A DNA stretch of 40,850 nt from Deltaproteobacteria bacterium (GCA_002683315.1 NYTD01000068.1:1-40850), one strand, 5' to 3'. Counted from the first letter of the stretch, positions 4,435 to 25,803 are shown. Numbers and translations: made by a program. Notes: a model not told the origin generated them from the letters alone.

Positions 4435-4443
4435 CCATCATGA

Positions 4444-6371: not shown

Positions 6372-6399
6372 GTTTATCTCCTCTATTAATGAATGACGC

Positions 6400-6431
6400 T
6401 GCCTTTATACTTCATTAGTAGTATAAAGGCA
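6400..6431. terminator. Perfect 12-bp hairpin (plus-strand terminator-like, or operator of the 6371 gene)
   Basis: TGCCTTTATACT-8 nt-AGTATAAAGGCA, followed by TATTTTTA on the plus strand. Confidence 0.5.
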
Positions 6432-7355: not shown

Positions 7356-7357
7356 GT

Positions 7358-9139: not shown

Positions 9140-9236
9140 TATCAGAGATTGATATTCATTCTTTTACAACGTAATGGAGTCTCAGTATTTTGAGGAATCC
9201 AAATACGGGATGTATCAAGAAGGGGTACAACAGAGT

Positions 9237-9785
9237 TTATGAATTATTGATGGTGGTATCAAATAAGCGAGACAATTCATGAATAAGGAGGTCTAGATCT
9301 TTGGTTCCATCTATGATTATGGTATCTGAAGGACGATATTTTCTAATAAGGTGTTCATATATCTCAAAAGAATAGTTTTGAGATAAACTCTTTTGCGTAG
9401 ATAAGGGTTTTTGAGATTGACGGCACGTGCGTACTTCAGGTGGTACGTGTATTTCAATATTATATCCAATATCGGAGACATTCAATCCCAAAGCCAGTGT
9501 TCCTTCTATGATTAAGTGATAGCCATCTTTTTGAGCTTTGGATATTTGTTTATGGAGAAAAGGGGCCATAATCTTTGATTTTTGTGCAGCTGTGGATAGG
9601 CATGATAATCCACTTAGACCTTGTACGCCCAATTGACGCAAGACAACTTTTATGATGTCTGTGTGGATGAGCAAACAGTTGGATTTTTTTTGAATCTCTG
9701 ATGTTAATGCTGTTGCCAGTGTGGTTTTACCACATCCAGGATGACCATTGATGACAAGAATCATGTCTTTCCATATTTCATACAA
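9237..9785 (-). CDS. P-loop small-molecule kinase (2-phosphoglycerate kinase / AAA_33-like)
   Basis: Walker A GHPGCGKTT, followed by IHTDIIKVVLR and LIIEG. Confidence 0.75.
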   Translation of the reverse strand: MYEIWKDMILVINGHPGCGKTTLATALTSEIQKKSNCLLIHTDIIKVVLRQLGVQGLSGLSCLSTAAQKSKIMAPFLHKQISKAQKDGYHLIIEGTLALGLNVSDIGYNIEIHVPPEVRTCRQSQKPLSTQKSLSQNYSFEIYEHLIRKYRPSDTIIIDGTKDLDLLIHELSRLFDTTINNS

Positions 9786-9928
9786 TCTCAGACTTTATAT
9801 CTAACAACTTTTTCAATATTGATCGATAGGCCTTACTTGTTTGGAAGTCAGAGAACATGTAATGGAACAAGCATCACGATTATTTTCCGATAATGCAAAG
9901 ATCACCATAGGATAGGATTCTGGCTTCT

Positions 9929-10135
9929 TCATGTTTCATTGCAGATAGACAAGTGCATATGTAGGTCATAATTATTAGGATGAAAACCTTCGGGCCAAAT
10001 CGTCTTTTCATCATAAATAGAATTTTGTATGGCAGCATGATTAAGAGATGATTCTCTTAGATCAGATCCTGCAAAATCCACATTTTTGATCGTTGAACGT
10101 ACAAAAATCACCGCATTTTTTATACGCAAAACCAT
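9929..10135 (-). CDS. Short pentapeptide-repeat protein or C-terminal remnant of one
   Basis: AVIFV/RSTIK/NVDFA/GSDLR/ESSLN/HAAIQ periodicity, then the YDEKTIWPEGF capping motif. AGGA upstream; an in-frame stop lies just before the ATG. Confidence 0.5.
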   Translation of the reverse strand: MVLRIKNAVIFVRSTIKNVDFAGSDLRESSLNHAAIQNSIYDEKTIWPEGFHPNNYDLHMHLSICNET

Positions 10136-10167
10136 TTGTTATCTTCCTACTGATTGCGAATGGTAGA

Positions 10168-11322
10168 CTACGAATCCCAGACTTTGATCAAAGTACTCAG
10201 TTCACCATTATTATAGGCTATGGCGTGAAAGGGGCTATGAATTCCGGTAGCATGAAATGGTGTACCCAGATGCTGCCCTTCGTCCAGAATCTGGGTGTCG
10301 AATATGTCTCGTGCGACGAGCTGACGGAGTGTTGCGGATTTTTGATGGAGATAAAAGAATCTTTGATGGCGTTGGTGTGTTTGACCGATGAGTTGATGGG
10401 CTTTGAATTCGTGAAAGAATTTTTCTTTACCAATACTCTCCAATGCCGGGCGAGGAATTTGGTCTCGGCTTTTGCCTGATAGGAGGAGACTTTTATTATG
10501 CCATGTCATTCCCATCCAGCAGTGTAAATAACTTCTATACTCTCCCACACAGGTAAGGCTTTGATCAAAGAGGAGAATCCCTGTGCTGGGATTGCGAACA
10601 CCAAGAGGCTGCCATGCAATGGCAAGATGTCCTTGATTTGATCGTGCATGCGTGGTGTAGATACCCCCTTTTTTGGGTGAGGAGTACTGAAGTTTGATCT
10701 CTCCTGTCTGTGAATGTAATCCGATGATACTGATGGCTGAATGTGCGCCTGGAAACGAAAATGCACCCACACAAAAGACTCCATCTGTGTTGGAAAAAAA
10801 TCGAGGTGGGATCTTTTTCGGATTACAATAATTTTCTTGTAAGACAACGGAAGGGCATGGTGTCTTCCATACAACCGCTCCACTTGGATCAAATTGAGCG
10901 AAGTGAAAAGCATGATGTTCACGTGTCTTTTCGACATATAGTGCTGTAATTGAACCTGGGAATGAAGAGTAGAGCGCCCATACTTCCTTTTTAGAGATAT
11001 CTCCTTTGTGGGACCATAGTAGCTTTCCATCATGAGATAAGGCAAGAATCATTGGTGCAGAATGAGTTCGCTGAGCATTGTTGTATCGAAGTCCTCCCAG
11101 GTACACACCGTTTTCATCACAAGAGAAGGTCTGCACGTGAAAGGGGAGTTTTATATGCCATGTTGGGTTGGTGACGATACACGTTAAAATATGGATGGAG
11201 CCATGCTCTATGAGCAGATAGCTCTTTTCAGCAATGCTGTGTACACCCAAAATGGTTCCTTCGTGAGGTATGGAGATTGTTTCGTAACGCATGATCAAGA
11301 CAAACGTGAAAGAGGATCTCAA
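10168..11322 (-). CDS. Hypothetical protein, probable beta-propeller (PQQ/WD-like blades)
   Basis: ALSHDGKLLWS, QFDPSGAVVWK and GLHSQTGEIK are blade-like motifs. The TTG start overlaps the stop of the upstream cereblon-like gene. Confidence 0.6.
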   Translation of the reverse strand: MRSSFTFVLIMRYETISIPHEGTILGVHSIAEKSYLLIEHGSIHILTCIVTNPTWHIKLPFHVQTFSCDENGVYLGGLRYNNAQRTHSAPMILALSHDGKLLWSHKGDISKKEVWALYSSFPGSITALYVEKTREHHAFHFAQFDPSGAVVWKTPCPSVVLQENYCNPKKIPPRFFSNTDGVFCVGAFSFPGAHSAISIIGLHSQTGEIKLQYSSPKKGGIYTTHARSNQGHLAIAWQPLGVRNPSTGILLFDQSLTCVGEYRSYLHCWMGMTWHNKSLLLSGKSRDQIPRPALESIGKEKFFHEFKAHQLIGQTHQRHQRFFYLHQKSATLRQLVARDIFDTQILDEGQHLGTPFHATGIHSPFHAIAYNNGELSTLIKVWDS

Positions 11323-11756
11323 TCCTCCTTAACCGATCCTCTGCGAAGTCCGAAAAATACGATCGTTTCTTCTTGATAGGGTTGGTACGACCATCCCAAA
11401 TGATGACCGCATTGTGCACACAGACAAAAGCGCCATTTATATCCAGGAAACCATGAATCTGCAGGAACAGGCTGACCTGTAATGATCACCTGAAAGGCAC
11501 TTCTAACCGTGAAAATTTCATGAATATACCCATTTGGATTGATATGCATGCTTTCGACAGGAATATCTCCAACCGTAATCTCATCTCCAACGTGTGCAAT
11601 CGCATTAGAGCATGCGCGACATCGATACATCTTTTTTTCAGGATTTCCTGTTTCTTCTTTGGATGTGTTTTTTTGATGGATGGGTTTGGAAGGTCTTTTT
11701 CGAAGCAGATACAATGGGAAGCAGGGTGAATGATATGATGAAAATTGAGGGTTCAT
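11319..11756 (-). CDS. Bacterial cereblon-family (CULT / thalidomide-binding domain) protein
   Basis: CRAC...CAQC zinc ligands, INPNG, SWFPGYKW, HLGWSY and FFGL. Start chosen at the ATG (11756) that overlaps the crcB stop. Confidence 0.9.
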   Translation of the reverse strand: MNPQFSSYHSPCFPLYLLRKRPSKPIHQKNTSKEETGNPEKKMYRCRACSNAIAHVGDEITVGDIPVESMHINPNGYIHEIFTVRSAFQVIITGQPVPADSWFPGYKWRFCLCAQCGHHLGWSYQPYQEETIVFFGLRRGSVKED

Positions 11757-12130
11757 GAAACATCCAACAATCGCTGTGCCAATGTCATACCGATGAGCGT
11801 AAGGATTGCACCTGATATGATCTGGACAAAAAAGTATACCGCTGCCATCTTCCACTGATCGCGAAGTACAAATTGGAGCGTCTCAAATGAAAATGTCGAA
11901 AATGTGGTCAGTGCACCCAAAAATCCAGTGGATATAACAAGTTTCCACTCCGGAGTTATTTTGCTCGAGAGATAGGTTCCCAATAACCCCAACAAAAAGC
12001 ATCCGATTGCATTCGCACATAGTGTTCCAAAAGGAAATCCTTCTTGCTTATTGAGTGATGACGAGATCAAAAAACGACAGACAGCACCGAAGGCACCACC
12101 AATTCCAACATATATAATGGAGGTGATCAT
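11753..12130 (-). CDS. crcB: Fluoride efflux channel CrcB/Fluc
   Basis: GGAFGAVCRF, FPFGTLCANAIGCFLLG and TGFLGALTTFSTFSFE motifs; 125 aa with 4 TM segments. Confidence 0.95.
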   Translation of the reverse strand: MITSIIYVGIGGAFGAVCRFLISSSLNKQEGFPFGTLCANAIGCFLLGLLGTYLSSKITPEWKLVISTGFLGALTTFSTFSFETLQFVLRDQWKMAAVYFFVQIISGAILTLIGMTLAQRLLDVS

Positions 12131-12729: not shown

Positions 12730-13968
12730 CTATTCTGTCGCTGTGTCTTCTTGTGGATCTTCAACAGGTTCTTCGGCAGGCTCATCTTGATCTTCTGGAA
12801 GTGTTTCTTCAACCTCAGGCTGGGGAAGTGTAGGGGTTCCTGTCTTCATAAATTCCACAGCGCGTTGTGCGAGATCAAAGTCTCGATTCAAGAACACATG
12901 GCCACTTATATTTTGATCTTCAATCCATAAATCCGTAGCCTCTATTTCTTCTATGGTTTCTTCAAGTGCTTCTTTGGGCATCTTGCTGTCTCCATTGGAC
13001 CATAGTATGGCAATGCGATCGGGGTAGGTCACCCGGTTCCATGAAAAAAGAGATAAATCGGACAGTGGGTATCCTTCTTCACCAACAAAAACACGAGAGA
13101 TGGTTCCCGACTCGAGTGGAAATGCTTCAGCATCGTCGAGGTATGGTTGAAGATTGAGAGGAGAGCTATCGAATATGACAGATTTTGGAGGATTTGCTTG
13201 AACGCTTTCTAATTCAAGCAGACCAATGATTGCTCTACCCCCTTCACCCAATCCAATCCAGTGTTGTTCTTGAGCATTGATGGCCTGTGGAAAATCCAAT
13301 CCAAATTCTTCTGCATAGGCTGGATCAGAGATGGCTTTTAGCGTATGCTGTACCATCACTCTTCCATATCGTGTAAATGCACCAAATGGAGGAGGTTCCT
13401 CTGTTGATTCTTCTTGCACGCTTGTATCTTCTTCAGAGGAAGAATCATCTTGAGAATTCGAATCGTCTTGAGACATGAGTGCAATATGTTCAAAGTTGGG
13501 AAAGACATCTGGATCGGAATGCCAGTAATCTCCCCAACAATTTCCGGGATAGATCTGCACAAACCCACCATTGGTGAGTGCTGTTGGAAGATATCCTTGG
13601 TTTTGTTCGTATAGATCTTGTGGGGTTTTGGATAATCCGAGAGTTTCCCACAATTTATTTTCTACCCATGCGGCACTCAGGCGATCGGGTAGTTGGATAT
13701 TGCTTTGTTCGAAATCAGAGATGAAGGCAACAGGGTTGGAATGAAATACGATAGCGACGGGCAAGGGATCTTCTGATTGGGGATATACCACAAATATTGG
13801 AGCGGCTTGGCCATCGGGACAAGATAGATTGCTCTCTAATATCGACACAAAAGCAGGAGTGTCATTCAAAGAAGGATTTTCAAAAGGAATTTTTGCGATA
13901 TCCACTTGTGGAAGTTGTTCAAATTCTTTCCAACATCCCATAAATGAGGTCAAATAAATGAGTGTCAT
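12730..13968 (-). CDS. Acidic lipoprotein with alpha/beta-hydrolase-like fold, probably lacking the nucleophile
   Basis: GGAGAAGG RBS before the ATG at 13968; signal MTLIYLTSFMGC. Motifs PLPVAIVFH, WIGLGEGG elbow, ILWSNGD and SGHVF. Confidence 0.65.
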   Translation of the reverse strand: MTLIYLTSFMGCWKEFEQLPQVDIAKIPFENPSLNDTPAFVSILESNLSCPDGQAAPIFVVYPQSEDPLPVAIVFHSNPVAFISDFEQSNIQLPDRLSAAWVENKLWETLGLSKTPQDLYEQNQGYLPTALTNGGFVQIYPGNCWGDYWHSDPDVFPNFEHIALMSQDDSNSQDDSSSEEDTSVQEESTEEPPPFGAFTRYGRVMVQHTLKAISDPAYAEEFGLDFPQAINAQEQHWIGLGEGGRAIIGLLELESVQANPPKSVIFDSSPLNLQPYLDDAEAFPLESGTISRVFVGEEGYPLSDLSLFSWNRVTYPDRIAILWSNGDSKMPKEALEETIEEIEATDLWIEDQNISGHVFLNRDFDLAQRAVEFMKTGTPTLPQPEVEETLPEDQDEPAEEPVEDPQEDTATE

Positions 13969-14192
13969 ACCTTCTCCAGAGTTGAGTTTTGTATCAAGTA
14001 TAATAAAAAACAATGATACAAAGAGGATTTTGAATGTTTTTTTGTGTTTTTATGGGCCGAAAAGAAAACACCCAAGTACGGTACATATAAACATTGAAAA
14101 TATTTTGTAACCATTTGTATAGTTTTTGGACAAACGCATATATACAGATACATTTTTAGTGTAACATGTTGAAAAAAGTATTTGGAGTGACA

Positions 14193-14678
14193 ATGCGTTG
14201 GTTTCTGGTCGATACAATAGATCAGCTTATTTTGGGTGATTTTGCAGTAGGCACAAAGACCTATGCAGATACAGAACCCTTTTTTCAAGATCACTTTCCA
14301 AATTTTCCAGTGGTTCCCGGTGTTCTTATCATGGAGTCTTTGGCTCAGATATCGGGAAAGCTTATTGGGTATACGGTTCGTACAGATCGTGGAGACTGGC
14401 CTTTTCCCATCCTGAGTATGATGAATCGAGTCAAATTTCGAAAATTCATCCCTCCCAACACCTGCATCACGTTGGAAACAAAGATCAAAGTTCTCAAAGA
14501 TGAAAGCGCGCTTGTTGATGTCCGAGCTAAGGTAGCAGGAAAAGTTCATGCGCAAGCAGAGCAGCTTTTTGTGTTCAATTCGGTGCCATTGGAAGAAGGT
14601 GAGAGTGAAAGATTGGAAGAACTAGAAAGAACCGAACTTCTTCGACTTTGGAAAGATTGTCCGGAGCATCACTCATGA
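14193..14678 (+). CDS. fabZ: FabZ-type 3-hydroxyacyl-ACP dehydratase
   Basis: FFQDHFPNFPVVPGVLIMESLAQ and VKFRKFIPP. GGAG RBS before MRWFLVD (alternative start 14166). Confidence 0.9.
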   Translation: MRWFLVDTIDQLILGDFAVGTKTYADTEPFFQDHFPNFPVVPGVLIMESLAQISGKLIGYTVRTDRGDWPFPILSMMNRVKFRKFIPPNTCITLETKIKVLKDESALVDVRAKVAGKVHAQAEQLFVFNSVPLEEGESERLEELERTELLRLWKDCPEHHS

Positions 14679-15889
14679 GAGATGTCGTCATCACAGGAAT
14701 AGGAATGGTAACTCCATTGGGACTCAATGTTTCTCAAACATGGAACTCTTTAATAGAGGGAAAAAATGGGATTCATCGAATTCAACGATTCGATCCAGCG
14801 GGCTATCCAGTACGATTTGCAGCTGAAGTTCCAGATTTTGCATTGGAAGATATTTCTGTCTCTCCTCTTGCTACAAAGATCCTTCAGCAACTCAAAGGAA
14901 AATTTACATATCGTGCTGTACGAGAGGCTATACAGATGTCTGGAATCACGACAAAGAGTACTCGTGTTGGTATTTGTGTAGGTTCAGAAGCGGCTCGTCC
15001 TTCTCTTGATCATCTTGCTGAACAATTAAATGTACAAGCACCTCCTGATCTTGATGAAATGCGTTCAATGGCTCCATCAGCACCGATCGATCTGATAGAA
15101 GAAGTGTCGGGTGCTCTGGGTGGCTCTTCCGTAATATCAACAGCATGTACTTCTTCTTCTCAAGCTGTAGGAGAAGGATTATATCGGATTCGTAGAGGGG
15201 AAGTCGATGCGATGATTGTGGGAGGAGTCGATGTTCTCGTTGATCCGCTTATGGTTATGGGATTCTCTTTGCTCGGTGCTCTTTCCACAAGAAATGAAGC
15301 GCCAGAAAATGCGTCTCGTCCTTTTGATCTTGAACGAGATGGATTTGTTCTTGGAGAGGGTGCAGGTTTTCTTATTCTTGAAGAACAAGAAATGGCGAAA
15401 TTACGAGGTGCCGATATTTTAGGAAAACTCAGTGGTTTTGGCTGTTCTTCGAATGCATATCGAATCACAGACTCTCCACCAGATGGTCGCGGTGCAGCAC
15501 AATCTATGATGGCTGCTTTGCGTGACGCTCGACTTACTCCAGAACAAATTGGATATATCAATGCACATGGTACATCCACCAAAATGAATGATACGTCAGA
15601 GACGCGCGGCATTATAAAGGCAATTGGAAAAGATACACCAGTGAGTAGTACAAAGTCTATGATGGGACACCTGGTTGCAGCATGTGGTGCAGTGGAAACG
15701 ATTGTGTCATTACAGGCCATACGAAATGGAGTACTTCCTCCCACTCGTAATCTTGAATCTATAGATCCCGATTGCTCTTTACATCATATTCCTCATCATG
15801 CTCGTGAAGTCAAGATCGATCATGCTATCTCCAATGCCTTCGGTTTTGGAGGCTCTAATGGCACTGTAGTGGTATCCAAGTGGCAATAG
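14675..15889 (+). CDS. Beta-ketoacyl-ACP synthase (FabF/KAS II-like), catalytically intact
   Basis: VVITGIG, STACTSS, RPFDLERDGFVLGEG, INAHGTST, KSMMGH and SNAFGFGG. ATGA overlap with fabZ. Confidence 0.93.
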   Translation: MRDVVITGIGMVTPLGLNVSQTWNSLIEGKNGIHRIQRFDPAGYPVRFAAEVPDFALEDISVSPLATKILQQLKGKFTYRAVREAIQMSGITTKSTRVGICVGSEAARPSLDHLAEQLNVQAPPDLDEMRSMAPSAPIDLIEEVSGALGGSSVISTACTSSSQAVGEGLYRIRRGEVDAMIVGGVDVLVDPLMVMGFSLLGALSTRNEAPENASRPFDLERDGFVLGEGAGFLILEEQEMAKLRGADILGKLSGFGCSSNAYRITDSPPDGRGAAQSMMAALRDARLTPEQIGYINAHGTSTKMNDTSETRGIIKAIGKDTPVSSTKSMMGHLVAACGAVETIVSLQAIRNGVLPPTRNLESIDPDCSLHHIPHHAREVKIDHAISNAFGFGGSNGTVVVSKWQ

Positions 15890-16740
15890 TCCTTCATAAG
15901 ATTGGCTTGGCAACTCCTCTTGGACATGATTGTGATGACTTTGTTAACAAAATTGAACACCAAACATCGGTGATCACATCTTTAGAGCCTCTCGCTTTGT
16001 TAGCATGTCCACAAGGGTCAATGGTTCAAGATCTTTCCATCCGTTCAATTATCAAGAAACGAAAAGAGATAAAACTCTACACTCGAGCCGCAAAACTGGC
16101 TCTTTTGGCTGCCTATAGATGTGTTGGGCAGATAAGCAAACTTGATACTGCTCTTTTTGTCGCGGTAGGAAGAGAGCCCCCTGATGAAGGCTCTGCAGAG
16201 AAGTGTCTTATTGCTTCGCAGAGAGATGGTATTTTTGATGAATCTTTGTTGGCAGATAAGGGACGATCACTGTATCCACCATTACTACCCTTGAGAACTC
16301 TTCCCAATATGATTTTGGCTCATATATCCATTCAATTGGAAATTATGGGAGAGAATGCATGTTGGGCTGGAGGAGAAGAGACAGGGATTCAGGCTTTTCA
16401 ATCTGGTTTTTGGGCCATAAAAGAAGGGCGATGTACACAGGCTTTGGTTGGAGCAGCCGATAGCTTTATCTCTTTGGGAGCAGCACGAGATCTTCATCGC
16501 ACCCAAATCATACCACCATCAGAAGCAGGGGTATTCTTTCTGCTGAAAGAAAAAGAGACACCAGAAATAGGAGATATTGTTGTGCGTCCCAATCAAAAAG
16601 AGCATGAGATGCGCCATTATCTATTGGATTGTATTGGCTATGCAGGAGCTGCACAACAACTCCTAGAACTAGTTTTTTCTTTGCATACACAGGAAAATAT
16701 TTCTTGGGGAGGTCTTTCTTTTCAAAAGCAGTTACAATAA
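15880..16740 (+). CDS. Truncated non-catalytic ketosynthase partner (chain-length-factor-like)
   Basis: KS N-terminal half (PPLLPLRTLPN, ALVGAADS, PSEAGVFFLL). The Cys position is occupied by Glu (GENACWAGGEETG versus GGSSVISTACTSS). No HGT motif. Confidence 0.75.
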   Translation: MAIVLHKIGLATPLGHDCDDFVNKIEHQTSVITSLEPLALLACPQGSMVQDLSIRSIIKKRKEIKLYTRAAKLALLAAYRCVGQISKLDTALFVAVGREPPDEGSAEKCLIASQRDGIFDESLLADKGRSLYPPLLPLRTLPNMILAHISIQLEIMGENACWAGGEETGIQAFQSGFWAIKEGRCTQALVGAADSFISLGAARDLHRTQIIPPSEAGVFFLLKEKETPEIGDIVVRPNQKEHEMRHYLLDCIGYAGAAQQLLELVFSLHTQENISWGGLSFQKQLQ

Positions 16741-16760
16741 TTGACGCTATTGGTTGGTGT

Positions 16761-18566
16761 ATGTCAAAGAAACGGCGATTTCAGTTTTTGAAAATGATTG
16801 CTACAGGAGGCTTTGGAGAGGTATATCTCTGCAAAGAGATCAATACCAATGGTATTGATCGCCTTGTAGCAGTAAAAGTGCTTAAGTCAGATTGGGTTGA
16901 CAATATTGATGTTGTCAATCGGTTGCGCGACGAAGCCAAGCTACTGGCTCTCCTCCGTCACAAAAATATCATTAATGTGTTTGATCTGACATCCATCAAT
17001 GGTCGAGCATCTATTGTGATGGAGTATATCGAAGGTGCGGATATGTCTATCATCATCGAAACGATGCGCTCCAATCGAAGACGGACTCCAATTTCTGTTT
17101 CTTTACAGGTGTGTGCAAAGGTAGCCGCTGCGTTGGATGCTGCATATAACCAATCCCCATTCCCCGGAGAAGCATCATTAAAGGTTGTTCATCGCGATAT
17201 AAAACCAGGAAATATCATGATCGACAAAGAAGGTATGATCAAAGTTCTTGATTTTGGTGTTGCCTACTCAATGTTTGAACAGCGTGTTTCCAATACTACA
17301 GAAATTCGATTTGGCTCTCTAGAGTATATGGCTCCAGAACGCTTGTTGTTTGAGCCAGAAACTCCTGCCTCGGATATCTATGCCCTCGCACTGGTTCTAT
17401 ACGAAAGTATTACAGGAGAGCCTTTTGGAGAAGCATCGAAGCAAGATGACGAGCATGAAGCCCTAATAAAAAATCGACTGCATCATCTTGAGAGTGTAAT
17501 TCATCTCCCAATCGCACAAGAACAAGAATTGATCTCGTTGCTTCGTACGACACTTGCGTACGAGCCAGATGATCGTTGTTCTCCTCTTGAGTTTTATCAA
17601 AGAGCGCGCGCCTTATCTCGCATGATACAAGGGGCGGATCTAATTCCATGGGCAGAGAAAGCGATCCCTATTATTCGTAAGGCACAGCCGCAGATTGTAG
17701 ATGGTGATGCTGGGTTGTTTCTTGGAAATATATTTGAAGAGGATACACTGACAGATGATACTCGTCTTCCTGCACCGATGGGTGATGATGAAACAGAAGT
17801 CCGGATTGTTTCCGAAGAAGAGCCTCGTGCACTCGTTTCATTTGTTGAAGTACAACCTCTTCCAGAAGAAGAGGAGCAGGGAACAGAGATTTTTGTGGCA
17901 GTGGAACGCACAGAGTTTGAGCGAGGAAACCCTTCTTATTTTCAAGGAGACTCGACAATGTCGATCCTTGGAAAAGCTGACGAAGAATATGTAGATAAAG
18001 ATGATGAAACAGAAGTAAGAGGATTTTCTTCGGAAGAACGTTTTCCAGAAGAAGAGTCTGTCGTCAGTGTTGTTGTTCAGCCTGTGCCATTCTCAGAACC
18101 AAAAACACAAGTCTATCGTTCTTGGTGGATGATCCTTTTTTTTGGTACTCTGTTTGGTATATCTATTGCGGGAGGGTTCTTTTTTCGAGAGGATTTATCG
18201 ATTTTGGTGAAGCTAGCTGCAGAAAATATTTTTGAAGAGGAGTCCAAAGATTCCCAACCAGAAAGTGTCGATACGCAAGACTCTACAGAAATTCCCAAAG
18301 AAAAAGAGATCCCCAATAAAGCGATTGTTTTCTCTGTTCTTGAGGATACAGGAACCCTTAGCGTTCGATGTGATGGGGAACGTAGACGAAACAAGCAAGT
18401 ACATGAAGATGAGATTCGTATATTTTTTGAACAAACATCATTTGACAAGTGCAAAGTACGGTATACCTCTTCCGAAGGAAAAGTAATGAAGAGCACAATA
18501 AAAGATGTAACATCAGGAACTTTTGTATGTTTCGTTGAAAATGGGAAAGAATGTGCGCGAGAATGA
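16761..18566 (+). CDS. Hanks-type Ser/Thr protein kinase with acidic linker, one TM helix and small extracytoplasmic domain
   Basis: IATGGFGEVY, VAVKVLK, HRDIKPGN, DFG, YMAPE and SDIYALA. TM segment WWMILFFGTLFGISIAGGFFF. Start taken at MSKKRRF. Confidence 0.93.
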   Translation: MSKKRRFQFLKMIATGGFGEVYLCKEINTNGIDRLVAVKVLKSDWVDNIDVVNRLRDEAKLLALLRHKNIINVFDLTSINGRASIVMEYIEGADMSIIIETMRSNRRRTPISVSLQVCAKVAAALDAAYNQSPFPGEASLKVVHRDIKPGNIMIDKEGMIKVLDFGVAYSMFEQRVSNTTEIRFGSLEYMAPERLLFEPETPASDIYALALVLYESITGEPFGEASKQDDEHEALIKNRLHHLESVIHLPIAQEQELISLLRTTLAYEPDDRCSPLEFYQRARALSRMIQGADLIPWAEKAIPIIRKAQPQIVDGDAGLFLGNIFEEDTLTDDTRLPAPMGDDETEVRIVSEEEPRALVSFVEVQPLPEEEEQGTEIFVAVERTEFERGNPSYFQGDSTMSILGKADEEYVDKDDETEVRGFSSEERFPEEESVVSVVVQPVPFSEPKTQVYRSWWMILFFGTLFGISIAGGFFFREDLSILVKLAAENIFEEESKDSQPESVDTQDSTEIPKEKEIPNKAIVFSVLEDTGTLSVRCDGERRRNKQVHEDEIRIFFEQTSFDKCKVRYTSSEGKVMKSTIKDVTSGTFVCFVENGKECARE

Positions 18567-19752
18567 GATTTGGGTAACTGGTATAGGAATAGCTTGTTCT
18601 GCCGGTACTTCCTTTACAGAGGTCACACAATCGATCTTGGACCATCGTCTGTGTGCCCAACCGACAGGGCTCACGCTTCCTGTTCCAATGTGGGGTGTCT
18701 GCCCGAATGAGATTCCATCACACCCCCATTTTGTTGATGACCGAAAGTCTTTGTTGGGACTCTTTGCAGTAGAACAAGCGATGCATGATGCGAAATCCCC
18801 GAATGGGCCATATTCGATATTTATGGGAACTGGTTTGTCTTCGATTACTCCAGCTCAGCTTGAAGAAGACCTATATCCATTTGTGAAAGATGGTATTTTT
18901 GATCGGGAAGCGATGGCACAAGATCTTCATAGACAAACAGCCGCTCCTGCTCGTCACGATCCTCATCGGTTTGTTCGATTTCTCAAGGAGAAGTATAATG
19001 CTACCGGACCGTGTGGAACCAACTTTTCGGCTTGTGCAGCTGCGTCTCAGGCAATTGCAGAAGGTATGCGCGTGTTGAGACGGGGACAGGCAAAGGTGGC
19101 GATTGTTGGAGGGCATGATAGCATGGCACATCCCATGGGGATGCTTTCTTTTGTTGTTCTCGGAGCACTAAGCTCTACAAGATGCCGTCCCTTTGATAAG
19201 CGTCGCGATGGATTCATGCTTGGAGAAGGAAGTGCGGTATTGATTTTGGAGCGTGCGGAAGATGCTCTAAAAAGGGGGGTGATACCCTATGCTCGTTTGT
19301 GTGGAGCGGGAAGTAGTATTGATGCGTGGAATGTTACTGCCCCACATCCACAAGGAGTGGGAGCGGAGCGTTCGATGATCAATGCACTTCGTGATTCTGG
19401 TTTGCATCATTCCGACATCGACTATATCAATGCACATGGAACAGGAACTCCACTGGGAGATATAGCTGAATCTTCTGCCATATCAAGAGTCTTTGGCGAA
19501 CATACTCCTGTTTCTTCTATTAAAGGAGCATTAGGGCATTGTATTGCAGCCGCAGGTGCTATTGAAGCGGTCGTATGTCTTGCGGCATTACAAAAACAGT
19601 TTCTTCCGGGTACCTTTGGGTTAGAAGAGGAAGAAAATTTTGAAATTAATGTGGTGAAAAACGCACAATTGATTTCGATCAGTTATACACTGTCGAATTC
19701 TTTTGGTTTTGGTGGTCAAAACAGCACGTTAATCTTTGGAGCAATCAATTAA
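18541..19752 (+). CDS. Second beta-ketoacyl-ACP synthase (FabF-like), catalytically intact
   Basis: IWVTGIG, FSACAAA, RPFDKRRDGFMLGEG, INAHGTGT, KGALGH and SNSFGFGG. Start uncertain (18523, 18541 or GTG 18553); all overlap the kinase end. Confidence 0.92.
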   Translation: MGKNVRENEIWVTGIGIACSAGTSFTEVTQSILDHRLCAQPTGLTLPVPMWGVCPNEIPSHPHFVDDRKSLLGLFAVEQAMHDAKSPNGPYSIFMGTGLSSITPAQLEEDLYPFVKDGIFDREAMAQDLHRQTAAPARHDPHRFVRFLKEKYNATGPCGTNFSACAAASQAIAEGMRVLRRGQAKVAIVGGHDSMAHPMGMLSFVVLGALSSTRCRPFDKRRDGFMLGEGSAVLILERAEDALKRGVIPYARLCGAGSSIDAWNVTAPHPQGVGAERSMINALRDSGLHHSDIDYINAHGTGTPLGDIAESSAISRVFGEHTPVSSIKGALGHCIAAAGAIEAVVCLAALQKQFLPGTFGLEEEENFEINVVKNAQLISISYTLSNSFGFGGQNSTLIFGAIN

Positions 19753-20477
19753 TGATTCTAAAAAATGTACGTCTTGTGTCAGTAAAAGGTCTTTTCTCTG
19801 GTGATGATAATTTTGTACAGTATCGTCTAAAAAAGCTCATACCAGACAGAAAGAGTATCAAGTTGATGAATCGTACTGTTCAACTTGGAATTGTTGCTGC
19901 TCGGATGACTCTTGAAGAAAGTGATGTGTGGAAAAAATTTCCACCATCTCGTCGTGGAATGTTTGTTTCAGCAAGTCCTGCGATTCGAGGTCAAGATGAC
20001 CTTCATAATGCACTTATGGCTTCCATGGTAGAAGGGAAGTTTTCCTATAAATCTTTTGCAGAGCAAGGAAGAACCCATATTCATCCTTTGTGGTTGGTAC
20101 GAGGATTAAGCAATAATATTTTAGGATTTGGAACTGCATTTTGGGATTTTCAGGGCGAAAACATGAATTATTGCCAAGGTCGAAGTGGAGGAAAACATGC
20201 ACTGATTCAGGCTGCACATGCCATTTGTGAAGGACGATTGGATGTCGCACTTGTGGGCGGAGCAGATTCTTTGATCGAAGCAGAAGAATTTTTGCATAAG
20301 CCATGTGCAGAAGGGGCCGCATTTGCTCTGTTGGTTTCCTCCAAAACCGACTTAAAACTTGATCTTGATTCGATTGAAAAACATGAACAGAAATTATCTG
20401 AATTGGGTGCGGGGAGTTGGTCAATTGCTTTTTGGAAAGCATATGAATCCAACAAATGCGTGTTAATGACAGAGTGA
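19752..20477 (+). CDS. Second truncated non-catalytic ketosynthase partner (CLF-like)
   Basis: HPLWLVRGLSNN, ALVGGADS and AEGAAFALL. The Cys position is occupied by Arg (GENMNYCQGRSGG). Only 241 aa. Confidence 0.75.
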   Translation: MILKNVRLVSVKGLFSGDDNFVQYRLKKLIPDRKSIKLMNRTVQLGIVAARMTLEESDVWKKFPPSRRGMFVSASPAIRGQDDLHNALMASMVEGKFSYKSFAEQGRTHIHPLWLVRGLSNNILGFGTAFWDFQGENMNYCQGRSGGKHALIQAAHAICEGRLDVALVGGADSLIEAEEFLHKPCAEGAAFALLVSSKTDLKLDLDSIEKHEQKLSELGAGSWSIAFWKAYESNKCVLMTE

Positions 20478-20531
20478 TTTTTGATATTGTGTTAAACTCC
20501 AACAACATCAATGATATTGAAGGAGTTTGAT

Positions 20532-20954
20532 ATGACCATTGCACTGGCGACACAAAGTGATGACGTTCAAAAAGATATTTGGGAAAAAGTATCCATAGCA
20601 TTTCAAGAGGCACTTGGACTTGATGAAGACGAAGTAGAGTTTGACATGACGATCATTGAAGATTTGGATGCTGAGTCCCTTGATCTTCTTGATATAACAT
20701 TTCAACTTGAGCGCTCGTTCGATATATCTATACCTCGTGGCGGAATTCAAAAAACAGCACAAGAAGGTGCAGATAATGATGGTTTACAATCGGATGGAAC
20801 CTTGACAGACAACGCCCTGGTTCGTCTTGCCGAAGCGATGCCAGAAATTCCAAAAGAAAAATTTGTACAAGGCTTAAAGCCCAATGATATCCCCAATTTG
20901 TTTGTGGTTGGAACCTTTTATAATCTTGTGGTTCGACTTCTAAACGAAAAATAG
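20532..20954 (+). CDS. Acyl carrier protein with a large C-terminal insertion
   Basis: DLDAESLDLLDITFQLERSFDISIP core with the Ser intact. About 50 extra residues precede LFVVGTFYNLV. AAGGAG RBS before the ATG at 20532. Confidence 0.88.
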   Translation: MTIALATQSDDVQKDIWEKVSIAFQEALGLDEDEVEFDMTIIEDLDAESLDLLDITFQLERSFDISIPRGGIQKTAQEGADNDGLQSDGTLTDNALVRLAEAMPEIPKEKFVQGLKPNDIPNLFVVGTFYNLVVRLLNEK

Positions 20955-21901
20955 TGAAGCGATTCTTATTTTTGGTTCATCCTCTTTCGAACCCACACCG
21001 TACACTTATGTCGCTTCGATGTCGGTTTTGGAAAAGTTTGATTACGGAAACATATACACAAGCAGAGATTGCCACACTATGTCGTTTTCGATGGGAAGAT
21101 ACAATAGAGGGTGTGGTCATGTCGATCCCACTTCTTCCCAATGAGATGATTGAAAACCAAGAGCGCGCTCTTTCTTTATTGCATAGAGCATATCGGATTG
21201 GTCTGGCTAAATACGGGAATATTGATGCCGTGGGGTTGGGATCGTTATGCTCTGTTGTAGCGAGTCGAGGAGTTGAGTTACAAAAGATAATTCCTGTTCC
21301 AGTAACAACGGGTAATGCTGCTACGGCTTGGTGCATGTACGCCCATATACAAAAGAGAAACATATCCGATCCGATCGCTGTATTGGGTTCATTATCTCCT
21401 GTTGGACAGGTGCTTTGTCGTCTATTACATCAAGCGGGATATGAGTTACGTGTCGATAAAAAACGTGCGGCCAAAAAGTATGGTTGGAATCATGGTGAAC
21501 CAGAAGATATTGTACGCGAAGCTTCTTTGGTTATCGGTTGTGGGCCAACTGGACCTGTGTTGGATGGACAAGCATTGCTCCCCAATGCTGAGGTGATTGA
21601 TGTGGCACTTCCTGGAAGTATTCAAGGATTCGTACACAATATGGTCTATCAAGGAGAAGGGATGTCAATGCCTGTCTCATGGAAAAGAGGTTTTTGGGGA
21701 CCCTTGTATCATCTTGTGTCTGGTTATGGGTGGAACACTGTTTTGGCTTGCTTGATTGAGCCCTTGATCGTTGTTTCCTTGGGTCGAAAAGAAGGTTTGG
21801 CATTAGGAAGTAAGATCGATCCGCAGGCCGTTCTTGATTTTGGTGGAGAAGCGAAGCGTCTCGGATTTGAGCCCAAACTTATTGTTCATCGGATGGGATG
21901 A
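20954..21901 (+). CDS. Acyl-ACP reductase-like oxidoreductase (AAR / COG5322 type)
   Basis: N-terminal FLFLVHPL, GLGSLCSVV and VTTGNAATA; Rossmann-like IAVLG; VIDVALP; VLACLIE; C-terminal AKRLGFEP. This matches the motif order of cyanobacterial AAR. Confidence 0.75.
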   Translation: MKRFLFLVHPLSNPHRTLMSLRCRFWKSLITETYTQAEIATLCRFRWEDTIEGVVMSIPLLPNEMIENQERALSLLHRAYRIGLAKYGNIDAVGLGSLCSVVASRGVELQKIIPVPVTTGNAATAWCMYAHIQKRNISDPIAVLGSLSPVGQVLCRLLHQAGYELRVDKKRAAKKYGWNHGEPEDIVREASLVIGCGPTGPVLDGQALLPNAEVIDVALPGSIQGFVHNMVYQGEGMSMPVSWKRGFWGPLYHLVSGYGWNTVLACLIEPLIVVSLGRKEGLALGSKIDPQAVLDFGGEAKRLGFEPKLIVHRMG

Positions 21902-22381
21902 TTACCCAACAAGATAAGTGGCCACACCGCTTGCGATTTGAATATTTTGCTCGTTGTGTAATGCTACGCGAAATACACCTATTTTATTGCCCATTCGTTC
22001 GATTTGTGCACTTGCGGTGAAACATGTTCCTTTTCCCGGGCGAAGAAAGTCGACGTGTAGGTTGACCGTTCCGAGCTTGGAAAATCGTTCGTTGAATTCT
22101 GCAATGGTGCATTCTTGTGTATCGATAAACAAAGAGCGTGCAGCAATAAGGCCACCTACGGTGTCAAGTGCAGAAGAGATCACACCACCATGAAGAATAT
22201 TTTGCATTTGGTTTCCGATAAATTCATCTCTTCTATCAAAAATAAGTTCGGCACGATTGTTTGTTATCTTTCCAATGCGGTAGTGAAAAAGAGTGTTAAA
22301 AGGCAGGACTTCAAGAAATATCTGAGAGATTTTCTCCAATATCTGTGGATTTTTGAGAATTGTTTCGTGTGGTGTGTTCAT
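21902..22381 (-). CDS. PaaI/YigI-family hotdog acyl thioesterase
   Basis: FIGN...ILHGGVISSALDTVGG, LGTVNLHVDFLRPG and IASGVATYLVG. Confidence 0.9.
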   Translation of the reverse strand: MNTPHETILKNPQILEKISQIFLEVLPFNTLFHYRIGKITNNRAELIFDRRDEFIGNQMQNILHGGVISSALDTVGGLIAARSLFIDTQECTIAEFNERFSKLGTVNLHVDFLRPGKGTCFTASAQIERMGNKIGVFRVALHNEQNIQIASGVATYLVG

Positions 22382-22532: not shown

Positions 22533-23861
22533 ATGAAAAAAGCCTACATACGAACCTTTGGGTGTCAAATGAATGTGTATGACACAGGAAAGATGCTCGC
22601 ACTCCTAAAAAATGATGGGTATGAAGAAACACATGAAATGGACGAAGCAGATCTTGTGATTGTGAATACCTGTTCCATCCGAGAGAAGCCAGAGCTAAAA
22701 GTGCACTCCTTTTTGGGGGAAGCGCGAAAGATCAAACGCAACCGGCCAAAAAAAGATATGACCATCGCGATATCTGGTTGTGTTGCACAGCAAGAGGGGC
22801 AAAATCTCCTCAATCGTTATCCGGATGTTAATCTTGTTTTTGGTCCAGATGCTGTACCGAATATCTCTACTTTGCTCTCTGCAACATACAATCAAAAGCA
22901 GGTCTTGGATACTACATTTCTCGATGAAGCAGACTACGTGTTTGCCTCTGATATTGATCCCAATGCAACACAGCGTGTGGGGGCATTTGTTACCATTCAA
23001 AAAGGATGTGACAACAAGTGTACATTTTGTATTGTACCCACAACAAGAGGAAAAGAAGTTTCTCGCCCATCCGATCAGATTGTGGCAGAAGTTCGCGCGC
23101 TGGTCGAGCAAGGGATCAAAGAAATTACGCTTATCGGACAAAATGTAAACTCATATGGTCTTAAGAAGAGTGGAGAGAGGACTTTTGCACAGCTTTTGTA
23201 TGCAGTGGCAGATGTTCCAGGAGTTGAGCGAATTCGATATACGACCTCGCATCCGCGTGATATGGGACTGGATGTGATGCAGGCCTATCGCGATTTACCA
23301 CAGTTATGCAGCCAGCTCCATCTTCCCGTTCAATCTGGATCGTCGCGGATTCTTAGACGAATGAAGCGATTCTATACACGAGAACGTTATCTTGAGGTTG
23401 TGGACCAGCTTCGTTCTGCACGTCCAGATATTGTACTGAGCACAGATTTTATCATTGGATTTCCCGGAGAAACGGATGCAGACTTTGAGCAGACGATGTC
23501 TCTTTTGGAAGACGTTCGCTTTCATTCTTCCTTTTCATTCAAGTATTCAGAGCGTCCCGGAACCCCAGCATTGAGGCTTGTTGAAAGAGATCCCATCGAT
23601 CAGATCTTAGCGGGAGAACGTCTAATGCATTTGCAAAAGCGTCAGAGAGAAATCGCGCAAGAAGAACATATGCTTCTCGAGGGAATGGTAGTCCCTGTTC
23701 TTGTAGAGGGACCAAGTCGACATGATGAGGGTGTAATTTGTGGACGAACGCATACATTCAAAACAGTGAATTTTCCTGGTGATGTGGCGTGGGTAGGACA
23801 AACCCGTAAAATACGCATCACCAAAGCATTTGCAAACTCTCTGCGTGGTGAGGCTGTTTGA
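22533..23861 (+). CDS. miaB: tRNA-2-methylthio-N6-dimethylallyladenosine synthase MiaB
   Basis: TFGCQMNVYD, NTCSIRE, GCVAQ, radical-SAM CDNKCTFC, RYTTSHP, HLPVQSGS and C-terminal TRAM domain. GGAGG RBS. Confidence 0.95.
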   Translation: MKKAYIRTFGCQMNVYDTGKMLALLKNDGYEETHEMDEADLVIVNTCSIREKPELKVHSFLGEARKIKRNRPKKDMTIAISGCVAQQEGQNLLNRYPDVNLVFGPDAVPNISTLLSATYNQKQVLDTTFLDEADYVFASDIDPNATQRVGAFVTIQKGCDNKCTFCIVPTTRGKEVSRPSDQIVAEVRALVEQGIKEITLIGQNVNSYGLKKSGERTFAQLLYAVADVPGVERIRYTTSHPRDMGLDVMQAYRDLPQLCSQLHLPVQSGSSRILRRMKRFYTRERYLEVVDQLRSARPDIVLSTDFIIGFPGETDADFEQTMSLLEDVRFHSSFSFKYSERPGTPALRLVERDPIDQILAGERLMHLQKRQREIAQEEHMLLEGMVVPVLVEGPSRHDEGVICGRTHTFKTVNFPGDVAWVGQTRKIRITKAFANSLRGEAV

Positions 23862-25138
23862 GCAAAATGAATCCATATTGGACCATTGTCCAAAAAGAAA
23901 AGCAACGGAGTCCTATCTCGTGGGCACCATTGATTCTTTTTGTTGTGGCTGTGTGTCTTGCTCCATTCTCAGCTCCAGCATTGCTTCACTTCCTAAAATA
24001 TCCAAACCCTCTTCCAGGAATGGAAGGGTTGGCTTTTCGCTTGAGTGCTTTGATTGGTGCAGCGGTGGCGATGTGGAGCTATCAGCAAATCATTCGTACA
24101 CCCGAGCGCGCGATTCTTGGGCTCCATCCTATTCAGCCTTTGTTGTGGTTTTCGGCATTATTTAGAAAGACGATACGTTCTACTTGGACATGGCCTTGTA
24201 CTGTTTCGGCTTTGGCATGGCCTTTGATACAAGCGGGTTTTGTAAAAGAGTATGGATTGATGTGTTTGATTGTGCTTATTGGATGGATATCCATGCTGTG
24301 TATCGGCTATGCCGTTCATCTTGGAAGTGTCTGGGTTGCTCGATCCCCGCACTGGGAATCCACATTGGACATGATTCGAGGAAATAACCCACGCGAGCAA
24401 GCGGCATTTATTTATGCACCAGGATTTGCATTGTTCTTTTGTGGAATGATTATGATGCTGTGTTCTTTTTCCATGGATGGTGTACTGCAAGGATATCCTC
24501 CGGCAATCGCACTTTTATTTGCTCCTCTGGGTGTCGCGTTTGCAGCCTTTGTCGCTGCACGAAAACTTTGTCTCACACAACTGGTTCCTGCATCTGCTAT
24601 TCTTGCAGAAGTTGATGCACGATGGGCTGTACTTGAAGAAGGTCAAGAAGAAGAAGAAGTGTATCTTGAATGGCTTGCCAATGATAGAAGAGAGTTGTTA
24701 CGCGCACTAAGGCAAGGGTGGCGAGATCTTCGTGTTTGGCCCATGGGTATTTGGGCTCTGGGGCTTTTCGCATTTGTTTCGGGATGGACAGGAGATCTAG
24801 AAAATGCACTATTGTTTGCTTCTATTGGTGGAATAGGGGGATGTACCATTGCAGTTGTTTTGGCACAAAAAAATCCGATATGGCTTGATGATCATCTTGG
24901 TGTGCAAGGAGTCGAGCTTTTGTGGGCGCGTTTTTGGCTGTGTGTCTTCTATGCTCAAGGAGCCATTATTCCAATTGTATTCTTTGTTTCGGGTGCTTTT
25001 TTGCGGCTGGCTATGATTGAGCTTTGTGTGGTAATATGTGCGATGTCTAGCTCGTACTTGTCTGTATATCATCGCAAGCATGGTGTTCTTGTGTTTCCAC
25101 CGATTGCATTGATTTTCATTTTTTTGGGGGTACTATGA
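23858..25138 (+). CDS. Multi-pass membrane protein, probable ABC exporter permease
   Basis: About 10 hydrophobic segments; overlaps the miaB stop and the following ABC ATPase start. Start may be the ATG at 23867. Confidence 0.7.
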   Translation: MSKMNPYWTIVQKEKQRSPISWAPLILFVVAVCLAPFSAPALLHFLKYPNPLPGMEGLAFRLSALIGAAVAMWSYQQIIRTPERAILGLHPIQPLLWFSALFRKTIRSTWTWPCTVSALAWPLIQAGFVKEYGLMCLIVLIGWISMLCIGYAVHLGSVWVARSPHWESTLDMIRGNNPREQAAFIYAPGFALFFCGMIMMLCSFSMDGVLQGYPPAIALLFAPLGVAFAAFVAARKLCLTQLVPASAILAEVDARWAVLEEGQEEEEVYLEWLANDRRELLRALRQGWRDLRVWPMGIWALGLFAFVSGWTGDLENALLFASIGGIGGCTIAVVLAQKNPIWLDDHLGVQGVELLWARFWLCVFYAQGAIIPIVFFVSGAFLRLAMIELCVVICAMSSSYLSVYHRKHGVLVFPPIALIFIFLGVL

Positions 25139-25803
25139 GCATAAAAGCTGTTTCTTTATGTAAGCAGTTTGGTCGCGTTCATGCTGTGAAAGAAGTTTCG
25201 TTCAGCATTGAAGCGGGAGAATTTGTTGGTCTTGTTGGTCCCAATGGGGCTGGAAAGTCTACAACCATAAAAATGCTCACCGGCCAATTGCTTCCGACAT
25301 CAGGAGCTGTACAGATTTGTGGTATTGATATCAGTGCACAACCCAATGAAGGAAGAGCTGAATTAGGATATGTCCCAGAATTTCCTGAGTTGTACACCTA
25401 TTTGAGTGCACGAGAGATGATTTCATTTGTTGCAGATATTCGAGGAAGGGGAAATGTGGAATGGGCTCTGTCTTTGACCGGTCTTGGAGATGATGCAGAT
25501 CGTCTCATTCGAGAGTATTCACAGGGAATGAGACGAAAAACGGCGATCGCTTGTGCGATGGTAGCAAAGCCCAAAGTCCTTATTTTGGATGAAGCACTGA
25601 ACGGGTTGGATCCACCTTCAGTGGAGCGTGTTCTACGCGCTCTCAACGAAGTTCGTGCAGAAGGAACAGCTGTAGTATTATCTACACACGTATTGGATAC
25701 GTTGGAAAAAATTGCAACACGAATCATCATGCTCAAGGATGGATCAGTAGAACATGACTGTCTTCCTTCTTCACTCCAAGATATTCGTAAGCAGTTCACA
25801 TAG
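25135..25803 (+). CDS. ABC transporter ATP-binding protein (ABC-2/drug exporter type)
   Basis: GPNGAGKST, YSQGM signature, LILDEALNGLDP and STH. Confidence 0.95.
   Translation: MSIKAVSLCKQFGRVHAVKEVSFSIEAGEFVGLVGPNGAGKSTTIKMLTGQLLPTSGAVQICGIDISAQPNEGRAELGYVPEFPELYTYLSAREMISFVADIRGRGNVEWALSLTGLGDDADRLIREYSQGMRRKTAIACAMVAKPKVLILDEALNGLDPPSVERVLRALNEVRAEGTAVVLSTHVLDTLEKIATRIIMLKDGSVEHDCLPSSLQDIRKQFT

Follow-up and report, generated by a model that had tools for sequence, protein, structure and literature searches.

A conserved type II fatty acid/polyketide synthase-like operon of uncultured Myxococcota with two ketosynthase/half-size partner pairs, a membrane kinase gene and a putative stand-alone thioester reductase

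Organization of the operon

The DNA analysed here (the window) is a 40,850-nt stretch recorded as Deltaproteobacteria bacterium (GCA_002683315.1 NYTD01000068.1:1-40850), which is contig C68 of a 3.55-Mb assembly of 337 contigs estimated to be 59% complete. Between positions 14166 and 21901, on the plus strand, lie eight open reading frames (ORFs) in one orientation that are linked by start/stop overlaps or short gaps (Table 1). They encode, in order, a FabZ-like dehydratase, a β-ketoacyl-acyl carrier protein (ACP) synthase (ketosynthase, KS1), a half-size KS-like partner (P1), a Hanks-type Ser/Thr kinase, a second ketosynthase (KS2), a second half-size partner (P2), an ACP with an extended C-terminus, and a reductase similar to acyl-ACP reductase (AAR) and to the N-terminal part of PigE. 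Eight co-oriented genes in this order had been proposed in an earlier note on this DNA, and all eight were found on the plus strand by ORF calls and by Pfam and NCBIfam searches. The arrangement is far beyond chance: of 20 related loci examined, 12 carry the complete set in the order seen here. We consider it probable that the operon specifies a dedicated type II fatty acid synthase (FAS)/polyketide synthase (PKS)-like pathway that works on its own extended ACP, ends in aldehyde release, and is linked to the cell envelope by the membrane kinase.

The junctions between the genes are tight. The dehydratase stop codon overlaps the KS1 start (ATGA), which makes ATG 14675 the likely start of KS1; KS1 and P1 overlap by 10 nt, a 20-nt gap separates P1 from the conserved ATG of the kinase gene, the kinase and KS2 genes overlap by 26 nt, and the KS2/P2 and ACP/reductase junctions are TAATG and TAGTG overlaps, the latter with a GTG start codon. 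The operon had earlier been taken to begin at position 14193, which is in the correct frame and strand and is an internal ATG of a dehydratase ORF that opens at 14166. A promoter and terminator consensus scan stayed at the shuffle level (15 versus 17.9 and 8 versus 6.9 in the shuffles), and a single promoter-like site matching 10 of 12 positions was located at 14094-14123, just 5' of the first operon gene. No ketoreductase (KR), acyltransferase (AT) or enoyl reductase (ER) domain was found in the eight operon proteins in Pfam or NCBIfam, as the earlier reading had stated.

Table 1. Features of the window (positions from its first nucleotide) and of related loci (positions within the named locus)
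Feature	Position	Strand	Size and start	Match or remark
FabZ-like 3-hydroxyacyl-ACP dehydratase	14166..14678	+	170 aa; alternative ATG 14193	Pfam FabA
KS1, active-type β-ketoacyl-ACP synthase	14675..15889	+	ORF from 14648	two KS Pfam domains
P1, half-size KS-like partner, active-site Cys absent	15880..16740	+	286 aa	KS N-terminal domain
Hanks-type Ser/Thr kinase	16761..18566	+	ORF from 16629; conserved part from ATG 16761	Pkinase
KS2, second active-type ketosynthase, N-terminal third divergent	18541..19752	+		two KS domains
P2, half-size KS-like partner	19752..20477	+	241 aa	KS N-terminal domain
Dedicated ACP, extended C-terminus	20532..20954	+	140 aa; 147 aa if ORF start 20511	PP-binding
Putative stand-alone AAR/PigE-N-like thioester reductase	20954..21901	+	315 aa, GTG start	profile, fold, Cys
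Conserved divergent neighbour, acidic low-complexity insert and tail	12730..14013	-	427 aa	no Pfam/NCBIfam match
Hotdog-fold thioesterase, convergent	21902..22381	-		4HBT 46.6 bits; NF008675 169 bits vs cut-off 107
miaB, then polytopic membrane protein, then DrrA/GldA-like ABC ATPase	22533-25803	+	membrane protein 426 aa	membrane protein without family match
PfaA-like PKS (polyunsaturated fatty acid synthase type)	26411-35020	-	2869 aa, single ORF
Two tandem aromatic-amino-acid ammonia-lyase paralogues	36339-39298	-
ACP-reductase two-gene unit, other family	L106 10449-15464; L107 2850-5998			between RNase Y gene and ybeY-phoH
Kinase-less operon version, L113	4868-11006	-		short-chain dehydrogenase/KR gene before ACP; family-2 glycosyltransferase gene upstream (Pfam)
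Serpin and FabD-like AT insertions	L034 5349-7600; L036 7334-8915

Two ketosynthases and their half-size partners

The dehydratase, which is kept as the first operon gene in the relatives, matches Pfam FabA at 56.7 bits and the fabZ model TIGR01750 at 84.8 bits (cut-off 155), and its translation contains DHFP...ESLAQ, which we take to be the dehydratase motif. In BLASTP, KS1 and E. coli FabF share 42% identity. KS1 passes the PRK07314 subfamily cut-off (403.1 vs 387) and stays below the cut-off of the NCBIfam fabF equivalog (403.6 vs 493.75 bits), as does KS2 (279.4 bits). Residues C167, H307 and H341 of KS1 are invariant in 13/13 orthologues, and the motifs SACAAAS, NAHGTGT and GALGH can be read in the KS2 translation; judged by these residues, both ketosynthases have an intact Cys-His-His set. 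A structure search with KS1 found PDB 9S5H at E 4.5e-71, ranked under many FabFs.

P1 (27.9 bits) and P2 (29 bits) match the N-terminal domain of Pfam ketosynthases, i.e. the N-terminal thiolase half alone, in NCBIfam as well as in Pfam. In alignments to solved FabF structures the position of the active-site Cys is occupied by Glu in P1 and by Arg in P2, and this column is variable across 16 P1 orthologues and also among the P2 orthologues; the IHPLWLVRGLSNN motif of P2 is kept in 17 orthologues. The two partners are paralogues of each other and share 31% identity over 180 residues (E 9e-17). When P2 was used for an exhaustive profile search, 2435 representatives were recovered at E <= 0.001, roughly a dozen of them of the size of P2; many of the matches are proteins of 400-440 aa aligned over the N-terminal half only, and the few named ones are ketosynthase family proteins of 'Deltaproteobacteria' metagenome-assembled genomes (MAGs). 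No match to P2 was found by tblastn in 72,556 plasmids. The P2-like protein of L113, a variant locus outside the order, is full-length (430 aa) with both KS domains. This suggests, as far as the sequences go, that the half-size partner arose through loss of the C-terminal half.

KS1 and P1 were co-folded with each chain given as an alignment, and the median of three runs was compared with three controls. The pair scored 0.92, a mark reached by 58/80 solved complexes and 2/110 mismatched pairs, and the best of the three controls scored 0.01; the runs share at least 80% of contacts, the pLDDT of the partner is at least 84, and the predicted interface takes in KS1 residues 161-166, which adjoin the active-site Cys. 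Complexes of like kind have been solved, namely ApeO-ApeC and the actinorhodin KS-chain-length factor (CLF) pair. The model therefore indicates likeness to such heterodimers, not binding. Together with the alignments to FabF structures, the prediction supports the pairing of ketosynthase and half-size partner that the earlier note had suggested.

A maximum likelihood ketosynthase tree (LG+G4, 44 rows) was rooted with a KS domain of the type I PKS in the window. The KS1 orthologues form one clade and the KS2 orthologues another (support 100/99 for each), and the canonical FabF proteins of four relatives also group at 100/99; these FabFs together with E. coli FabF are supported at 94/54 in the drawn tree and at 98/83 in the group table. 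The KS2 clade is sister to ApeO of E. coli CFT073 (98/93), on a long ApeO branch (1.97) that makes the placement unsure.

This placement bears on the alternative that the product is an aryl polyene (APE) or another polyene pigment, in which an ApeO/ApeC-like heterodimer would build a conjugated polyene by iteration with no enoyl reduction. A ketosynthase with a half-size, Cys-less CLF is a trait of APE systems (PMC8358021) that the operon pairs, as aligned and modelled, appear to share, and the operon likewise has a dehydratase and no ER. The partners themselves argue against this alternative: BLASTP aligned neither P1 nor P2 with E. coli ApeC (240 aa), and neither matched a CLF model in Pfam or NCBIfam (PF00109 and KS models were the sole matches), and clusters rich in PF13723 rank low for P2 in the Atlas. 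The suggestion that they are ApeC-type CLFs was thus not borne out, and P1/P2-type partners are a second family of truncated ketosynthase subunits beside ApeC. In comparison with the annotated E. coli CFT073 cluster, genes for an aryl-activating ligase, an ApeQ-type KR, LolA/MMPL export, a glycosyltransferase and an acyltransferase were not found beside the operon in the window. APE pathways are not known to end in a reductase, and we regard an APE-like product as quite unlikely. Ladderane-type systems had also been named as possible kin, and nothing was found that ties the operon to ladderanes.

A membrane kinase encoded within the operon

The kinase matches Pkinase PF00069 at 147.1 bits (cut-off 31.7), and the catalytic motifs GxGxxG, VAVK, HRD, DFG and APE are present in its translation. 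All 17 copies compared share one plan, in which a kinase domain is followed by a variable, often acidic linker, one transmembrane helix and 110-144 further residues; the last ~80 residues contain four Cys that are invariant in 15/15. The outside domain was modelled as an all-beta sandwich (pLDDT 89.7) that is probably disulfide-bonded, and Foldseek found 0 PDB matches to it at E <= 0.001. Assignment as a PASTA kinase was rejected: the PknB/Stk1 PASTA model NF033483 matches over residues 7-207 of 563 only (181 bits vs 450), and the outside part is the four-Cys beta-sandwich, in which PASTA repeats are absent. The protein is a membrane kinase with a small outside domain. The earlier label of receptor kinase is right in so far as it implies a membrane anchor and an outside domain; 'receptor' goes further than the searches do, as no ligand-binding family was recognised.

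The position of the gene is conserved as well. In 15/20 loci, and in L130 as well, the gene for the kinase is placed between P1 and KS2; these 16 loci represent six of the seven families that were sampled in the order. In a rearranged locus (L131) the kinase gene still precedes KS2.

The extended ACP and the putative releasing enzyme

The ACP matches PP-binding at 25.4 bits in Pfam and the AcpP equivalog of NCBIfam at 42.8 bits, under its cut-off of 70.45, and its Ser lies in an invariant GAESLD context. Public gene calls also give 140 aa. The oversized ACP remarked on previously is explained by a C-terminal extension of ~65 aa that is not in E. coli AcpP and is itself conserved (mean column identity 57% in 18 sequences). 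At cluster level the extended ACP has 88 relatives, and no name of a cultured organism is attached to any of them. Wherever a whole reductase was tabulated, the ACP gene is located directly 5' of the reductase gene, with the exceptions of L114, which has a fused reductase and no ACP match, and of L130/L132, which end just before the ACP.

The reductase has no Pfam match. In NCBIfam its sole match at E <= 0.01 is the PigE model, of which it hits just the N-terminal part (73.7 bits vs a cut-off of 850). A family profile built from 48 homologues aligned almost end to end with the PigE structure 4ppm (E 5.9e-37) and with the AAR structure 6jzq (E 4.6e-14). Residue C266 is invariant in 48/48 sequences and is aligned with a Cys of PigE and, in 6jzq, with the FACFAE Cys, which the title of entry 6jzz ('AAR-C294S') points to as C294 of AAR. 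The AlphaFold model (pLDDT 92.3) retrieved AAR chains at ranks 1-3 and 5-7 in Foldseek (TM 0.73-0.76, with 0.75-0.76 for the best of them; E ~1e-16 to 1e-15) at 17-20% identity; next among the PDB matches is the 'TAD' domain of the carmabin pathway. Profile, invariant Cys, fold and Foldseek thus agree with the proposal that the last gene encodes an AAR-like, thiol-dependent reductase. PigE's N-terminal domain is reported to convert a thioester into an aldehyde by reduction (PMC8341465). Because residues 6-11 are nearly invariant in the family, the sequences support the GTG at 20954 as the start codon over the shorter public gene call. Longer relatives are fused to a class III aminotransferase, to nonribosomal peptide synthetase-like domains or to a saccharopine-dehydrogenase-like domain, and are 20-31% identical over the best BLASTP segment. 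TabE of the tambjamine pathway was considered as a relative and set aside, as it is an aldehyde dehydrogenase-type enzyme unrelated to the operon reductase.

With an AAR fold and a catalytic Cys, the reductase might be thought to feed an aldehyde-deformylating oxygenase (ADO) in a hydrocarbon pathway of the cyanobacterial type, yielding alkanes, and for marine Myxococcota MAGs faar/ado annotations are given, without being analysed, in an automated survey (PMC13488336). The ADO family PF11266 was, however, found in 0/41 genomes sampled from the order (23 of them at least 90% complete), while the control Synechococcus was positive. Alkane formation by the cyanobacterial route is therefore unlikely, and as an account of this operon we consider it highly improbable.

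Distribution and variants in Myxococcota

Of 41 genomes sampled across the genus, family and order, 31 contain a reductase homologue. The 20 related loci were compared by tblastn to the eight operon genes: in addition to the 12 with the complete set, three loci end at contig edges and are otherwise consistent with the operon, one (L030) is without the first two genes, which are found with the upstream neighbour on another contig of the same genome (L133), and one is rearranged to ACP-reductase-kinase-KS2 (L035/L131). In L034, genes for a FabD-like acyltransferase and a serpin (Pfam) are inserted between KS2 and P2; L036 has two extra ORFs as in L034, identified through sequence reading only.

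Phylum-wide, 44/301 genomes match the reductase profile at E <= 1e-20. Twenty-four of these belong to this order, all at 260 bits or more except for the partial G037, and 13 belong to another family, in which the ACP-reductase pair stands alone between rny (RNase Y) and ybeY-phoH. Long open frames of 691-802 aa account for 5 + 1 matches, and the last is L113, a kinase-less version of the operon outside the order. All 63 loci from the species-genome collection are MAGs by title, and the related records are all uncultured Myxococcota MAGs. Nearly identical DNA is present in marine metagenomes, and seven contigs of one marine RNA library, at least 99% identical, cover parts of the dehydratase, KS1, P1, KS2 and miaB, with the other operon parts uncovered; these contigs are compatible with expression and are not proof of it.

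Relation to primary fatty acid synthesis

The operon could in principle be the housekeeping fatty acid synthase of the organism or a second copy of it. The similarity of KS1 to FabF given above agrees with such a role, and in the 59%-complete genome of the window no other fabF or acpP exceeded the cut-off. The equivalog cut-offs are nonetheless missed by KS1, KS2 and the ACP; genes for fabH, fabD, fabG and fabI are absent from the operon; and a releasing reductase and a non-standard ACP fit such a role poorly. In four of the five near-complete relatives that bear the operon, a canonical fabF (589-617 bits) is directly beside a canonical acpP elsewhere, i.e. on another contig or far from the operon; the fifth, G005 (93% complete), has no canonical fabF or acpP over the cut-off. 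The KS1 and KS2 clades are separate from FabF in the tree, so that the ketosynthases do not group with housekeeping FabF, and four of the five relatives have their own acpP-fabF locus. These results uphold the earlier view of a specialised system apart from primary FAS. From its sequences the operon appears not to be a housekeeping fatty acid synthase, a role we judge very improbable.

Proposed pathway

From the gene identities, catalytic residues, synteny and separation from housekeeping FAS, obtained by sequence, fold or comparison, we infer the following roles for the heterodimers, the enzymes in trans, the aldehyde and the kinase. A FabD-type enzyme, which here would have to act in trans and in L034 is operon-encoded, would load malonyl onto the extended ACP, and the KS1-P1 and KS2-P2 heterodimers would lengthen an acyl chain by malonyl units. 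Two different heterodimers suggest, by analogy with the model for the kec cluster of Pseudomonas (see below), two defined elongations and not one iterative synthase. A FabG-type KR, in trans here (a candidate on contig C53 scores 268 bits) and within the operon in L113, would reduce the keto group, and the FabZ-like enzyme would then dehydrate the intermediate. As no ER is present in any version of the operon seen, some unsaturation probably remains in the chain, at least in part of it. The AAR-like reductase would take the chain on C266 and release it as an aldehyde with NAD(P)H, and the membrane kinase would tie the activity of the pathway to a signal from the cell envelope.

Several points weigh against this scheme. 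The genes for KR, AT, ER and phosphopantetheinyl transferase (PPTase) are not in the operon, so that chain length and reduction state cannot be deduced from it. Given the missing fabF and acpP in the window's own genome, separateness from primary FAS in this organism is inferred from its relatives. The reductase does not reach any curated AAR equivalog model of NCBIfam, and, with G145, V150 and G151 invariant, its glycine-rich loop is only partly AAR-like. The high KS1:P1 score may mirror the likeness of the pair to solved KS-CLF structures. Three of the 20 loci (L025, L033, L038) contain the ACP-reductase pair only, and no KS genes were found within the 16 kb fetched around the pair of the other family; since the pair stands alone in places, it may serve chains of other origin. 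Coupling to a cell-envelope signal is the most likely role of the kinase, as read from the conserved position of its gene.

More tentatively, the operon could encode a kinase-gated lipid-aldehyde pathway that an uncultured order of Myxococcota, mainly aquatic, has inherited vertically as a core trait, and in which a eukaryote-like receptor kinase would switch two non-iterative KS/half-KS modules that convert a primary acyl chain into an unsaturated aldehyde (e.g. a 2,4-dienal-type envelope lipid precursor or signal), and in which the extended ACP and the AAR-like reductase would be an ancient two-gene unit present in two lineages. If the pathway proposed above holds, AAR-type reductases would have a role beyond cyanobacterial alkane synthesis and pigment or alkaloid pathways, as stand-alone release enzymes with their own unusual carrier, the pair being kept in two Myxococcota lineages. 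The locus would also give a clear example of a gene for a Hanks-type kinase that is fixed within a lipid-biosynthetic operon, which would make phosphorylation control of type II synthases testable outside mycobacteria, and would point to a new aldehyde or derived lipid in abundant uncultured marine and freshwater myxobacteria.

Genes flanking the operon

The 427-aa gene is located divergently 5' of the dehydratase gene in seven loci (L026, L028, L029, L032, L039, L130 and L133), and a link between it and the operon is possible; the Atlas hints, as a lead only, at an alpha/beta hydrolase (0.94, 165 shared features). An editing role in the operon was weighed for the convergent thioesterase and rejected, as it is not conserved there: it is absent beside the reductase in 20/20 related loci at E < 1e-5, and probably lies outside the conserved unit.

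The gene miaB is found 3' of the operon in 7/20 loci. It is present, alone or with the membrane protein gene, after the operon in the fetched stretch of L021, L026 and L028, and the whole miaB-membrane protein-ABC ATPase trio follows the ACP-reductase pair in L110 and L111. The trio may be an exporter or merely inherited synteny.

The PfaA-like PKS farther downstream contains, in Pfam, KS, AT, a second KS-like region, ACP, KR, dehydratase and a C-terminal 4'-phosphopantetheinyl transferase, and scores 814 bits with TIGR02813, below the cut-off of 1010. It was rejected as part of the cluster of the operon, as similar giant genes with two KS regions lie on non-operon contigs in G002, G005, G016, G022 and G026; its PPTase domain could serve the operon ACP too. 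The ammonia-lyase of 512 aa is just over the HutH cut-off (540 vs 539.15 bits), and that of 474 aa is under it (399 bits) and also resembles aminomutases and tyrosine ammonia-lyase. The remainder of the window (1-12130 and 35006-40850) includes genes for a thrombospondin type 3 repeat protein, a hemolysin-III family protein, an S8 subtilase with a PT repeat, a zeta-toxin/P-loop kinase-like protein, a CrcB fluoride channel, an FGE-sulfatase domain protein and a sulfatase.

Comparison with known systems

No description of this Myxococcota operon or of its ACP-reductase pair was found in the open-access full-text literature. The gene set had been thought not to correspond to a described cluster; it has a precedent, however, in the kec (koreenceine) type II PKS cluster of Pseudomonas (P. 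koreensis and P. putida), which, compared by description, appears to be the nearest described gene set. The kec report (PMC6498172) describes an ACP (kecA), ketosynthases (kecB, kecD) each followed by a partial KS proposed as a CLF (kecC, kecE), a KecF in which an aminotransferase is joined to a COG5322 domain, for which reduction of the ACP-bound chain is proposed, the reductases KecG/H, and kecIJK. One ACP, two KS/partial-KS heterodimers and release by a COG5322/AAR-like reductase are thus common to both. In P. putida the cluster is PP_2777-PP_2784, for which 'four sequential KSs' are described and the ACP is said to have an 'unusual predicted structure' (PMC12490732).

A koreenceine-like alkaloid would arise here if each heterodimer added one malonyl unit to a medium-chain acyl primer from primary FAS and the released aldehyde were converted by an unlinked aminotransferase to an amine that cyclises. 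Besides the shared genes, a lead from the Atlas agrees with this, as a 291-aa KS-N-domain family that is most frequent in Pseudomonadota ranks third among the clusters nearest to P2 (0.95, 189 shared features). Against it, the operon reductase is a separate protein that, unlike the bifunctional KecF, has no PF00202 aminotransferase domain, and the fused forms are distant; KecG/H-type reductases and kecIJK-like genes were not recognised in the operon, which adds a FabZ-like dehydratase and a Ser/Thr kinase; and vertical conservation of this Myxococcota operon across an order, beside miaB, is more in keeping with a core lipid than with an antibiotic. Matches to the reductase occur in 134 plasmid records, and the two loci opened are of the PigD/PigE type, not kec-like. 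An alkaloid of the koreenceine type is in our view unlikely, and a dedicated pathway ending in an aldehyde remains the preferred reading.

The operon resembles the ApeO-ApeC system (PDB 6QSP) in that an active KS is combined with a half-size partner of a single thiolase fold, KS2 groups with E. coli ApeO, and neither system has an ER. It differs in having two such pairs, where APE systems have one pair and ApeR, in lacking the other APE genes, in a chain that would end at a reductase, and in partners that are not detectably ApeC-like. With AAR (PDB 6JZQ/6JZU) and the PigE N-domain (PDB 4PPM) the reductase shares its fold, full-length profile matches and the aligned catalytic Cys, whereas it has no ADO partner and no aminotransferase fusion and is paired with its own extended ACP.

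Mycobacterial FAS-II enzymes are regulated by Hanks-type Ser/Thr kinases, and there, as here, type II ketosynthases of a specialised lipid pathway go together with a kinase of eukaryote-like type. The kinases of the mycobacterial system have PASTA domains, whereas the operon kinase has a small four-Cys beta-sandwich on the outside, and its gene lies within the biosynthetic operon. The core logic of the operon therefore has precedents in kec, APE and AAR/PigE, and its own features are three: a kinase gene fixed in the operon, a stand-alone reductase with an extended ACP in two lineages, and a second family of half-size partners.

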